From an uncultured Phycisphaerales bacterium (GTDB lineage Bacteria > Planctomycetota > Phycisphaerae > Tepidisphaerales > Tepidisphaeraceae), in assembly GCA_963755915.1 (NCBI GenBank), contig CAVWLP010000003.1, positions 864,001-928,000 of the forward strand: 64,000 nt of DNA, given 5' to 3'. The notes under the pieces are model-generated. The model saw only the letters and a program-made list of their open reading frames with translations, was not told the origin of the DNA and did no database searches. Below are positions 24,958 through 31,766 of the stretch, piece by piece (within the stretch, counting starts at the first letter, position 1; every line of letters begins with the position of its first letter). The translations under genes and the position numbers were made by a program.

Positions 24958-25040
24958 TTTTCTTGGCGCTCTTGGCGTCTTGAGCGAAGCGGGCGGTTAT
25001 AAGATTTTTAACCGCCAAGACGCCAAGAGCGCCAAGAAAA
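24958..25040. repeat. Palindromic repeat, family A; copies at 27380-27459 and split at 29579-29640/31125-31143
   Basis: Near-identical ~80-bp copies (tcttggcg...gcgaagcgggcggttataag...ccgccaaga) with 9-mer ttggcg(c/t)tc units in inverted arms. Confidence 0.88.
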
Positions 25041-27368: not shown

Positions 27369-27503
27369 ATCCGTTGACTTTCTTGGCGCTCTTGGCGTCT
27401 TGAGCGAAGCGGGCGGTTATAAGATTTTTAAACCGCCAAGATGCCAAGAGCGCCAAGAATTCAGAGGCGAAATTTATTTGGTGACTCGGATCCGCAAGTT
27501 CCC

Positions 27504-28826: not shown

Positions 28827-29184
28827 ATGTGGGAGGTGGAATATACGGACGAATTCGGCCAGTGGTGGGATGCACTGACTGACGCCCAACGAGTCGCGGT
28901 CGCGCGGAGCGTCGAGTTGCTTAAGAAGTTGGGCCCGGCATTGCCCAGGCCGCACGCCGATACGGTGAAGGGCTCGCGGCACCCTAATATGAAGGAACTT
29001 CGCTGCCAATGCGGCGGCAAACCCCTTCGAACATTCTTTGCCTTCGATCCTCGCCGATCTGCAATATTGCTCATCGGCGGCGACAAGACGGGCGATCGCC
29101 GCTTCTACAAGCGAATGATCCCCATTGCCGATGACCTTTATGACACTCATCTGTCCGAACTTCGAAAAGGAAGGGTTGATGTGA
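28827..29184 (+). CDS. Type II toxin, RelE/ParE (HigB/Gp49-like)
   Basis: MWEVEYTDEF, GPALPRPHADTVKGS, MKELR, FAFDPRR, LLIGGDK. The natural stop is probably TGA 29182-29184, after a 1-nt slip in AAAA. Confidence 0.88.
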
Positions 29185-29522
29185 TGGCCGGCCACCACAA
29201 ATTCAGCGAACTTCGGGCGCGGATGTCCGCCAAGTCCCGTGCCCGCGCCGGCACGGCGCAAGAGGATATGTCCAAAATGCTCCTGGCCGAAATCCGTAAG
29301 CTTGCCGGGCTGACACAGGAGCAGCTCGCGGCCCAGCTTGGTGTGAAGCAGCCGAGCCTTTCACAACTCGAATCGCAGCAGGACATGCAGATCAGCACCC
29401 TCAAGCGGATTGTCGAGGCGCTCGGCGGTGGATTGGAAATCGTCGTCACCCTCCCCGGCAGGCGTATCTCCCTGAGCCAATTCAAGGATGGCCGGGGACG
29501 CAGACGCAGCAGCGCGGCTTAG
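29184..29522 (+). CDS. XRE HTH antitoxin (HigA-like)
   Basis: LAEIRKLAGLTQEQLAAQLGVKQPSLSQLE...ISTLKRIVEALGG. Confidence 0.88.
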   Translation: MAGHHKFSELRARMSAKSRARAGTAQEDMSKMLLAEIRKLAGLTQEQLAAQLGVKQPSLSQLESQQDMQISTLKRIVEALGGGLEIVVTLPGRRISLSQFKDGRGRRRSSAA

Positions 29523-29751
29523 TTGTGTCGGGGAAACTGAGGACAGAACCCTCCATTTGACTCATGCGTCTTTTGCATTTCTTGGCACTCTTGGCGTCTT
29601 GAGCGAAGCGGGCGGTTATAAGATTTTTTAACCGCCAAGAAACTATGAAGCCGAGCCTTTCTCGGGACGTGAACGGGGTCAAAATGCCCCAAGTATGAAC
29701 GAGCGTACCGCGTAGGTCGCTCAAACGTCTTTTTTGAGAAAGGACTCGGCA

Positions 29752-30795
29752 ATGCGAATTCTCGCTTTGGACCTGGGAAAGAACAAGAGCGTTTTTGTGG
29801 ATTATGTCACCGGCGGTGGAGAAAGAACGTTCGGCAAGATCGGCACCAATGCCCACGAGGTGCAAAAACTACTCGAGCGGGTGCGTCCGGATCGACTGGT
29901 CATCGAGGCCGGTCCGGCGGCAGGATGGGTTTGTGATCTGGCGGAGCGGAACAATGTTCCCGTCCAGGTGGCCAATGGCAACGATGAACGCTGGCGCTGG
30001 AAGACGGTGAAGGAGAAGAGTGATCGTAAAGACGCGCTGAAGATGGCGGCGATGTCGGAGATGGATTCGCTGCCGACGGTGCACGTGCCCAAGGCATCGG
30101 TTCGGCAGTGGCGTTCATTGATTGAATACAGACACGGCCTGGTGGATCGCCGCACGGCGCTCAAGAACTCGATCCGATCAATCTACGAGCGGCAGGGTTT
30201 GTATTTGCCCTCGGCGACCAAGGCGTGGACGAAAGCGCGACTGGAGGAAATGAGGAAGGAAGCAGCGGCCGCATCGGCGGAAGATCTGTGGCTGTTTCAG
30301 ATCGGTTGTGAGGTGGCGCAACTGGAGCACCTGGAGAAGCAGATCGAAACTGTCGAAAGCAAGCTTCAGGAGTTGGGCCAGGCCAACAAAGCGGTGAAAC
30401 GATTGCAGGAGGTGCCCGGCGTTGGTCCGCGGCTGAGCGAGGCGGTGGCGGTGATCATTGATGATCCCAGGCGATTCAAGAATGCACGTCAGGTGGGATG
30501 TTACGTGGGTCTGACGCCGCGGCGCTGGCAGAGCGGCGACAGCGATCGCCAGGGGCGGATCAGCAAGGCAGGCAACGCGCTGCTGCGGGAGTTGCTGGTG
30601 GAGGTGGCGTGGCTGGGGGTTCATCGCAATACGTGGATGAAGGACGTGTACGAGAGGGTTCTACGTGACAGCGAGAAGCGCAAGAAGATCGCGATTGTTG
30701 CGGTAGCCAGGAGATTACTGGTGAAGCTGTGGGCGATGCTGCGGGACGGAACCCGATGGAGAGAACCCCAGCGATCGCTGACGGCGGCCACTTGA
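29752..30795 (+). CDS. IS110-family recombinase (DEDD)
   Basis: ALDLGK, VIEAG, KSDRKDA, VPGVG, GLTP...QSG, GRISKAGN, AVARR. Confidence 0.95.
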   Translation: MRILALDLGKNKSVFVDYVTGGGERTFGKIGTNAHEVQKLLERVRPDRLVIEAGPAAGWVCDLAERNNVPVQVANGNDERWRWKTVKEKSDRKDALKMAAMSEMDSLPTVHVPKASVRQWRSLIEYRHGLVDRRTALKNSIRSIYERQGLYLPSATKAWTKARLEEMRKEAAAASAEDLWLFQIGCEVAQLEHLEKQIETVESKLQELGQANKAVKRLQEVPGVGPRLSEAVAVIIDDPRRFKNARQVGCYVGLTPRRWQSGDSDRQGRISKAGNALLRELLVEVAWLGVHRNTWMKDVYERVLRDSEKRKKIAIVAVARRLLVKLWAMLRDGTRWREPQRSLTAAT

Positions 30796-30949
30796 AAATC
30801 GAAAAGGCGATGACTGTCCCGACAAGTCGGTACAGGCGATGGAGTATCTCCCCTCCGGAAGACACCGTGTCAGAAAGCCGTTGTCTTCTGTGCAGGGGAT
30901 TGAGTAGAGTTGAAGTGAAGTGGAATTGACGCGTTCGTGCAGGTTGAAT

Positions 30950-31100
30950 GAGCAAGGCCAGACCCCGGTTGGCGTCTTAAGCTTCAAAGCTTGCCGCTAA
31001 GAATAGGGCTGGCCATTTGTACAGTTGAATAGGCCCGCCGCCAGGCGAGAGCACTGAATAGAAGGCTCACCCAATCGACCGCATGAGCGATCAACGCCCC
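30950..31100 (+). ncRNA. Putative bridge/seek RNA of IS110 #1
   Basis: Stem-enclosed guides ttggcgtctt and ccgctaaga match the insertion target; atagaag matches the donor end. Boundaries approximate. Confidence 0.75.
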
Positions 31101-31211
31101 TTGACAAGGCTCGGCTCATAGAAGACGCCAAGAGCGCCAAGAATTCAGAAGCCATTCAACTCATTGGTTTTAAATCTCTGCGCTCTTTGCGGTGTCCAGC
31201 GCAGCGGGCGG

Positions 31212-31766
31212 TTAAACTTCGCCGGCGGCGGACTCCTGCTCTTTGCCTTTGGGGACAAAATCAAATTGGTATTTTTCTCCGAGGTGCTCGCGGGTCATGT
31301 GGATGATTTCCTGGGTGTGGCCGCGGAAGTGGGAGATGGTGTTGGTGATGGCGGCGAGGACGGTGGTGTCAAAGCCCTGGATTCTTCGGGCGGAAATAAG
31401 GTCTGTGGCGGTGAGGCGGGAGAGGATTTGGTCGGCTTCGATTACGGTTGATTGGAGGAGGGCGAGGATCTCGGTTTTGGGGCGGTTGGAACGGTCGGAA
31501 AATTCCTGGGGGCGATTGCGGATGTCCTTTTGGTTGCCGACGCCGGCGATGAGCCATTGGCGGAGGTTGCCGGAAAGGTGGAGGCAGAGGTTGGCGATGC
31601 TGTTCATCTCGGGGCGGGGGCGGTGCCAGAATTGCTCTTCATTGAGTTGGGAGGCGCAGTGGTCGATTTTCTGCAAGCCTTCGGAAAGGGTTTCGCGCAT
31701 GGCCGCTTTAAACGAGCGGCAGAGTTCATTGACTGCTATAGAATCTGGGGTTTTTGCATCACTCAT
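31212..31766 (-). CDS. DinB/DUF1572 family protein
   Basis: NSIANLCLHLSGNLRQW, RNRPQEF, HFRGHTQEI. Confidence 0.85.
   Translation of the reverse strand: MSDAKTPDSIAVNELCRSFKAAMRETLSEGLQKIDHCASQLNEEQFWHRPRPEMNSIANLCLHLSGNLRQWLIAGVGNQKDIRNRPQEFSDRSNRPKTEILALLQSTVIEADQILSRLTATDLISARRIQGFDTTVLAAITNTISHFRGHTQEIIHMTREHLGEKYQFDFVPKGKEQESAAGEV

Follow-up and report, generated by a model that had tools for sequence, protein, structure and literature searches.

An IS1111-type insertion sequence in a Tepidisphaeraceae genome, probably guided to a host palindrome by an RNA from its own 3' region

Nine near-identical copies of a 1485-bp insertion sequence interrupt one and the same short sequence in the genome of an uncultured Phycisphaerales bacterium (Tepidisphaeraceae; GenBank assembly GCA_963755915.1; three contigs, 6.6 Mb; hereafter G000). 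The copy studied here occupies positions 29640–31124 on the forward strand of a 64,000-nucleotide (nt) stretch of contig CAVWLP010000003.1 (positions 864,001 to 928,000), to which we refer as the window. Analysis of the window, of the remaining copies and of related elements argues with high confidence for a functional member of the IS1111 group of the IS110 family that is guided to a host palindrome by an RNA encoded in its own 3' region. The family assignment, the site specificity, the conserved fold of the RNA and the covariation of its guides with the target and with the right end of the element are demonstrated by the sequence comparisons reported below.

The limits of the element follow from the empty site. 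Cutting out 29640–31124, as proposed in a preliminary description of this DNA, joins aaccgccaag to acgccaagagcgccaagaa and restores a sequence identical to the uninterrupted repeat at 25011–25038. The host flanks read ..ttttttaaccgccaag to the left of 29640 and acgccaagagcgccaagaa to the right of 31124, and because AAGA is common to the target and to the joined ends, the ends can be slid by up to 4 nt. The interrupted host repeat is palindromic; its left arm, its loop and the start of its right arm up to the insertion point lie at 29579–29639, and the remainder of the right arm lies at 31125–31143. Within the element, subterminal inverted repeats lie at 29643–29659 and 31106–31121, and an independent repeat search returned their core of 11 nt at 100% identity (29649–59 / 31106–16). 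These repeats reach about 15 nt (CTATG / CATAG) across a 1-nt indel and start 3 nt inside each end. Non-coding DNA amounts to 112 nt before the transposase gene and to 329 nt after it.

The transposase gene (29752–30795, stop codon included, + strand) encodes a protein of 347 amino acids beginning at the ATG that aligns with the M(R/K)ILA(L/I)DLGK start of its relatives. The protein matches PF01548, an N-terminal RuvC-like DEDD domain (2.9e-10, residues 6–144), and PF02371, a C-terminal domain with a conserved S/T-G (2e-24), and it scores 216.6 bits against the NCBIfam model NF033542, 'IS110 family RNA-guided transposase', for which the cut-off is 140. Its C-terminal domain is similar to those of the solved transposases ISCro4 (3e-18) and IS621 (1.3e-16), the GLTPRR.ESG stretch of ISCro4 aligning with GLTPRRWQSG of the window transposase. 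Among six relatives, down to 42% identity, residues D7, E52, D91 and D94 are invariant, as is the motif G253-L254-x-P256-x4-S261-G262; from their spacing, rather than from a structure alignment, we take D7, E52, D91 and D94 to be the four catalytic acidic residues. By its sequence the protein is an IS110-family RNA-guided transposase, that is, a DEDD/serine recombinase. IS1111 transposases are described as proteins of 330–350 amino acids with a GL-P----S(T)G motif (PMC11187229), and the IS1111 group is defined by subterminal inverted repeats (7–17 bp) and by a longer non-coding region situated downstream (PMC11187229, PMC11208160). The inverted repeats, the 3' non-coding region, the length of 347 amino acids and a GL-P----SG motif are all found in the window element. 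The domain matches, the invariant residues and the layout of the element bear out the earlier view of an intact IS1111-type RNA-guided recombinase. An identical protein is present in public collections, where the named members of its cluster bear only the label 'transposase'; a phylum-wide protein search at E ≤1e-70 returned 3 of 401 genomes, G000 included, and a scan of genome contigs returned six loci.

Mapping of the copies together with their flanks, as had been suggested, revealed a strict site specificity. Seven of the nine full copies in G000 are identical and two differ by one single-nucleotide polymorphism (SNP), and all nine are inserted at taaccgccaAG/acgccaaga (the slash marks the insertion point), preceded by taaccgccaag and followed by acgccaaga; none lies at an unrelated site. 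The target sits in a palindrome of about 70 nt, the arms of which are tandem CGCCAAGA-like units. Exact empty copies of the 16-mer target number 21 more in the genome, with 3 of these on the opposite arm of an occupied palindrome. Two empty targets had been noticed less than 5 kb away from the insertion, and both are present: an exact one (25013–25030) within an unoccupied copy of the palindrome (24958–25040), and a second one at 27434–27451 (+ strand) with a single mismatch, a C>T difference that the T guide described below would pair via an rG:dT wobble. At least three of the nine insertions have no recognisable second palindrome arm alongside, which argues that the sequence is read and not a DNA hairpin. 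Past the ~70-nt repeat the flanks of the nine copies are unrelated to one another, the reading frames are intact and the copies differ by at most one SNP. Since the nine copies are near-identical, they argue for recent movement, and the unrelated flanks together with the intact frames make it scarcely conceivable that the copies are inactive relics multiplied by duplication of the surrounding DNA and not by transposition. A stop-free frame of at least 150 amino acids spans 1 of the 9 occupied and 9 of the 21 empty sites, as compared to 93% of 1000 random positions, and to this extent the proposal that the palindrome acts as a safe harbour is loosely supported.

The candidate for reading this sequence is the RNA predicted to be encoded by the 3' non-coding region (30796–31124, + strand), a region that folds with a minimum free energy of -129.1 kcal/mol (z -5.19; none of 100 shuffles folds as stably). 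In the predicted long form (30901–31118) a long closing stem surrounds a multiloop that holds a target-binding stem-loop (30956–31014) and a second hairpin, hairpin 2 (helix 3; 31032–31054), and the same multiloop architecture is predicted for the related elements G001, G011, L065, L067, L035 and L036. The target-binding stem-loop consists of an outer stem, ggccag at 30956–61 with ctggcc at 31009–14, an inner CCC/GGG stem (30963–65 / 31006–08), an unpaired T guide (30969–30978), a small spacer hairpin, AAGCT-TCAA-AGCTT (helix 2; 30979–30992), which separates the two guides, and an unpaired B guide (30994–31002). The outer stem, the two guide stretches and the hairpin had all been read from the sequence beforehand, and their positions proved to be exact. 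A consensus structure obtained from an alignment of six related 3' regions has the same order, namely outer stem, inner CCC/GGG stem, unpaired T, small hairpin, unpaired B and later a second hairpin. In this consensus, 12 of 22 pairs are changed on both sides and 83.1% of the cells are paired, with 0 of 500 shuffles equal to it, versus at most 45% paired and 3 compensated pairs in a control in which the partners were slid by 1–3 columns; the test favours the consensus somewhat because the structure was drawn from the same alignment. Compensatory changes occur at 3 of the 7 pairs of hairpin 2. An Rfam scan of 29400–31400 with E values up to 1 gave only a chance match resembling a small nucleolar RNA inside the transposase gene, and no bridge RNA or seekRNA family. 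When the six RNAs were turned into a covariance model and this was run against 101 related genomes, 10 of them, G000 among these, proved to contain members; within G000, under stricter filters, the matches fall only inside the nine full copies.

Both single-stranded stretches of the stem-loop correspond to the target. The T guide, TTGGCGTCTT, is complementary to the top strand over the core and the right flank (AAGACGCCAA); the earlier reading of ttggcgtctt at 30969–78 as a reverse complement of the target is exact, and the repeat search returned the same match as a 10-nt pair at 100% (30969–78 / 31122–31). The B guide, CCGCTAAGA, has the same sense as the top strand and comprises left flank, core AG and then an A. 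It had been given as ccgctaaga with an 8/9 match to the target, which is correct in position and in extent; the one difference is a C>U that would form an rU:dG wobble. Insertion leaves both guides with a full match at the two junctions, which fits the published statement that the donor has to be flanked by target (PMC11187229). Matches of this kind might instead be pieces of the host repeat that were captured without any RNA function, the target being picked by the protein or by a DNA hairpin. A host repeat present in many copies, as the target is, could indeed be acquired through recombination, and the statistics obtained from G000 by itself are moderate. However, the two matches are oppositely oriented, are split by a conserved hairpin and lie inside a compensated stem, relatives with unrelated targets bear fitting guides at the same structural positions, and the second palindrome arm is missing at three or more of the nine insertions; we consider such a capture very improbable.

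The strongest evidence for guidance comes from these relatives, among which the guides change together with the targets. Comparisons of each element's own guides with its own target were taken from the alignment columns and the flanks. The elements of three genomes belonging to the same genus share terminal stretches of 18 nt at the left end and 17 nt at the right end. The T and B guides of G000 go with the site described above in 9/9 copies. G001, with a transposase 90% identical to that of the window, has the T guide TTGGCGCTCT, an unchanged B guide and the site gacgccaAG/agcgccaaga in 4/4 copies; here, a 4-nt change in T accompanies an insertion 8 bp, that is one repeat unit, further along the same palindrome. 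At the G001 copy L046, in which the arm is uninterrupted, the G000-type site just upstream is unoccupied. G011, with a transposase 73% identical, carries the T guide GTTGGCT and the B guide AGGCCAGA at the site caggccAG/cc in 12/12 copies (cca continues on the right in 11 of the 12), and its outer stem is a compensated GCGGCA/TGCCGC. The G011 target is a different dispersed repeat; of its 23 copies inspected, 20 are uninterrupted, and 9 of those read exactly caggccag/cca. As target and ends share only AG in this relative, the AG core put forward previously is unambiguous there. Overall, T changes with the right flank. The right junction could be read in 14 elements, and in 11 of them T is complementary over 7–10 nt to the core together with the right flank (G000, G001, G011, L065, L067, L035/L041, L036, L037, L102, L106 and L107); L034, L105 and L111 fall outside this count, their right ends lying beyond the DNA examined. 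The B guide matches left flank plus core over 5–9 nt in all seven readable cases, in which the base that follows B is always A, the first base of the element. The proposal of an RNA programmed against the host palindrome is upheld by this concerted change of guides and targets.

Several observations on the repeats and on the relatives can be recorded alongside. Some copies of the palindrome contain an 11-nt insertion, gagcgaagcgg, in one arm (window 24980–24990 and 29591–29601), which destroys the G000-type target on that arm and leaves the G001-type target intact; three of the four G001 insertions adjoin this palindrome variant. The G011 target repeat (L069–L098), which is no simple palindrome, measures about 85 nt or more, occurs in at least 40 copies and ends in ..attcgagc. 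A matrix of longest matches computed over whole loops was dropped as too noisy, the outer stem of G000, for example, matching the target of G011. That outer stem (30956–30963, 31007–31014; aaggccaga / ggctggcc) holds 8–9 letters of the G011 B guide and target, which is probably a coincidence. Approximately 1150–1500 nt upstream of the RNA match in L107, a remnant of an L037-like guide RNA is found where the left end would be expected, and this suggests nested or adjacent IS1111-type elements.

Does the RNA read the end of its own element as well? The heptamer atagaag had been reported at 31058–64 and again at the right end, 31118–24, and both positions are exact. This candidate donor guide, designated B' (AUAGAAG), belongs to the multiloop, in whose 3' linker it is predicted to be single-stranded; it equals the last 7 nt of the element, and its last 2 nt are the core. 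In the relatives, B' reads AUAG followed by three bases and the right ends read CATAG followed by three bases, and these three are the same in B' and in the right end for AAG, GAG, ATG, TGG and TCG. A sixth variant is seen in L103, where AGG in B' faces AAG at the right end and would form a wobble, and L037 has TCG in B' and TTG at a decayed right end. Moreover, in 15 of the 16 RNAs aligned, B' ends in the same two bases that B has at its core position, the cores being AG, GG, CG and TG; in the exception, L106, the two are off by a shift of one column. Because the aligned rows are related, this concordance represents at least 3 independent changes and not 15. A core shared by both loops is a hallmark of bridge RNAs, and the most likely role for AUAGAAG, as far as covariation can tell, is to read the right end of the donor.

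The corresponding evidence for the left end is thinner. The 5' linker of the multiloop (31023–31033) contains AGUU, which could pair with AACT at the left end, and then a conserved GAAUAGG. AGUU (31023–26) is kept in 9 of 16 aligned rows, whereas L103, L105, L111, L037, L035 and L036 differ and L106 has a gap; in G001 the complementarity to the left end extends to 7 nt (UAUAGUU). When a complementary left-end guide was sought in the relatives, a match of the AGUU type over 4–7 nt was found in the closer ones and none in L035 and L036, so that AGUU can be regarded as a tentative left-end guide only. An apparent compensatory left-end case in L068 is not claimed, the junctions of this element being unreadable. 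The earlier assignment of atagaag to the donor is supported in so far as this stretch varies in step with the right end; no guide was established for the left one.

A different account of the same data is that the target guides are real and AUAGAAG is no RNA donor guide at all: the protein would read the ends through the subterminal inverted repeats, and AUAGAAG would be a repeat at the level of DNA, for instance a second protein-binding site, or would be kept alike by conversion. Since B' repeats the right end in direct orientation, its covariation cannot separate RNA–DNA pairing from two copies of a DNA site, which leaves room for a DNA-level explanation. The lack of a complementary left-end guide in L035 and L036 points the same way, as does the 82-nt seekRNA of ISEc11, which in the account given in PMC11187229 has target matches only and no donor loop and suffices for transposition. 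On the other hand, the linker that contains AUAGAAG is single-stranded and the multiloop to which it belongs is conserved, and the agreement of its last two bases with the core of B, across 15/16 rows and four cores, is what would be expected of a bridge RNA and not of a plain protein site; donor-binding nucleotides have likewise been predicted within the multiloop for IS1111 elements (PMC11208160). On balance we judge a purely protein-based reading of the ends to be unlikely. A more elaborate proposal would combine a two-substrate bridge RNA, with donor guide and core in the multiloop, a T guide that by itself sets the register on a target of tandem 8-nt units, so that four letters shifted the insertion by exactly one unit, and a ~45-nt hairpin upstream of the guide scaffold, common to the element and two IS21-type families of the genome, that would act as an RNA module by which insertion sequences of unrelated kinds draw on one host or regulatory factor; with all of its parts taken jointly, this proposal is plausible but somewhat doubtful.

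Guidance of the element by its own RNA to the palindrome, for which the evidence above argues, could proceed as follows. The transposase would bind an RNA made from the 3' non-coding region of the element, the internal loop of which would present the T and B guides, overlapping on the core AG. T would pair with the top strand over core and right flank, B would pair with the bottom strand over left flank and core, and the AUAGAAG stretch of the multiloop, corresponding to right end plus core, would read the donor end. By analogy to published systems, the element would leave as a circle, and the circle would recombine at AG into taaccgccaAG/acgcc of the multicopy, mostly intergenic palindrome. 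We infer that the RNA is transcribed and processed, that the protein binds it, that the circle forms and that a promoter is created at its junction. The right end is preceded at 18 nt by a -35-like TTGACA (31101–31106, + strand), which might supply one half of such a promoter, and the relatives have TTGAC(A/T) or TTGCCA at the same distance. A junction promoter is assumed for the IS1111 family (PMC11187229), and the TTGACA near the right end fits one. Two metatranscriptome libraries contain contigs over the 3' non-coding region, which provide weak evidence of expression: one contig is identical over 30755–30959, and the other covers 30927–31125 with the exact guide letters of the G001 type and continues into a G001-type flank. 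A DNA contig that skips from 29636 to 31122 was considered as a sign of excision or of an empty allele at this locus and was rejected, as its short side comprises 28 nt within the repeat and it may derive from another locus.

Several points weigh against guidance by an RNA of the element. On the sequence of G000 by itself only the T match is unusual, with 20 of 5000 dinucleotide shuffles of the 329-nt region giving a reverse-complement match of at least 10 nt to the 28-nt site; the longest exact same-strand match of the region to the site is 6 nt, which is ordinary among such shuffles, and the 8/9 match of B and the 7-nt match of atagaag are not significant on that sequence and become convincing only through the relatives. 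Chance is thus not negligible on a single sequence, and the case rests on the copies and the relatives. Among the 14 elements with a readable right junction, the flank is not clearly matched by T in L103, L104 and L068; these are single, possibly decayed copies, and L104 seems to have no transposase gene upstream. Because the target is a tandem of near-identical CGCCAAGA units, T and B (30969–30974 with 30996–31001) are able to form 6 bp between them when the RNA is free, and such self-pairing might hide the guides. The U-for-C of the B guide turns one of these pairs into a G-U, and L035 is predicted to self-pair likewise. A search of the integrated element for a sigma-70-like promoter found none, and inspection of the joined ends by eye found no good -10. 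The contigs from the RNA libraries could be contaminating DNA, and by their nature contigs cannot show the ends of an RNA. Finally, the existence of the RNA, its processing and its binding by the protein are deduced from sequence only.

Comparison with characterized elements places the window element next to ISPa11, ISEc11 and ISKpn4 (Siddiquee et al. 2024, PMC11187229). As described there, these elements share with it a DEDD transposase of about 340 amino acids, subterminal inverted repeats and a 3' non-coding region, and their seekRNA has a short and a long form, as is predicted for the window RNA. The seekRNAs of IS1111 elements are reported to have the top-strand guide 5' of the bottom-strand guide, with overlap of the two in the target, and RNAs of the IS110 type to have the reversed order (PMC11187229); the window RNA, with T preceding B and overlapping matches, follows the IS1111 order. 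ISPa11 is described as targeting a repetitive extragenic palindrome (PMC11187229), similar to the palindrome used here. The window element differs from these three in its Planctomycetota host, in its own target repeat and guides and in being known here from sequence, and the likeness was drawn from the published description, not from a sequence alignment. Natural retargeting between relatives has been published for ISEc11 versus ISXne4 (PMC11187229); in the present case, retargeting between sister genomes consists of a shift by one 8-nt unit, brought about by four letters of the T guide alone.

IS621 and ISCro4 (Durrant et al. 2024, PMC11208160; PDB 8wt6, 9t56) have a homologous C-terminal domain with the catalytic SG, and their RNAs, as described, resemble that of the window: they carry guides for both strands of the target, they repeat the donor end, and the core dinucleotide is the same in their two loops. 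In the IS110 group the RNA is located in the 5' (left) end and the order of the guides is reversed, in contrast to the 3' RNA of the window element. The donor loop of IS621 and ISCro4 is a simple internal loop, whereas the candidate donor nucleotides of the window RNA lie in the linkers of a multiloop and the other half of the donor is left with no established guide. The subterminal inverted repeats are long in the window element relative to the IS110 group, and its core is AG. IS621, too, reportedly targets a repetitive extragenic palindrome, according to the title of a reference. ISPpu9 of Pseudomonas putida is portrayed in PMC12288879 as an IS110-family element that resides in repetitive extragenic palindromes and has a small RNA gene downstream of its transposase, as does the window element; the same source describes additional stand-alone copies of the ISPpu9 RNA gene, whereas the window RNA was found only inside the nine full copies.

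The element clearly adds an example to a mechanism that was described in 2024, and the mechanism itself is not new, because the principle, natural retargeting (ISEc11 vs ISXne4) and the use of palindromes (ISPa11) have already been published. Its value lies in the clean set of natural data that it offers on the less studied branch, IS1111: three close elements with identical ends have three targets. To what was known, it adds a shift by one repeat unit through four guide letters and evidence, from sequence, that the RNA also spells out the donor end and the core. Direct and inexpensive predictions for retargeting follow from it, and it bears on the question of whether IS1111 RNAs read the donor in the way that IS621 bridge RNAs do. 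It also documents in the Planctomycetota an RNA-guided recombinase, apparently active to judge from the near-identity of its copies, the landing sites of which are intergenic palindromes.

Other features of the element and of its surroundings were noted. A hairpin module at 30835–30895 (+ strand), upstream of the guide scaffold and no part of it, is shared with IS21-type elements of G000, where it lies in the IstB tail. This hairpin of about 45 nt (..CCGGAAGACA..TGTCTTCTG..) has 43 more occurrences in the genome at 89–93% identity, 31 and 9 of them in the C-terminal tail of IstB-like open reading frames of two IS21-type families and 3 at isolated positions; among the versions of the element, those of G000 and G001 have the hairpin and that of G011 lacks it, and Rfam gave no match to it. 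Outside the window, G000 contains six copies of a second, distant IS110-family transposase (e.g. C3:1157505 and C2:1813124) with 35% identity over residues 198–327. The gene upstream of the insertion (28827–29522, + strand) reads, from inspection of its translation, like a toxin-antitoxin pair fused in one frame, the N-terminal part resembling RelE/HigB-type killers and the C-terminal part resembling a helix-turn-helix protein.

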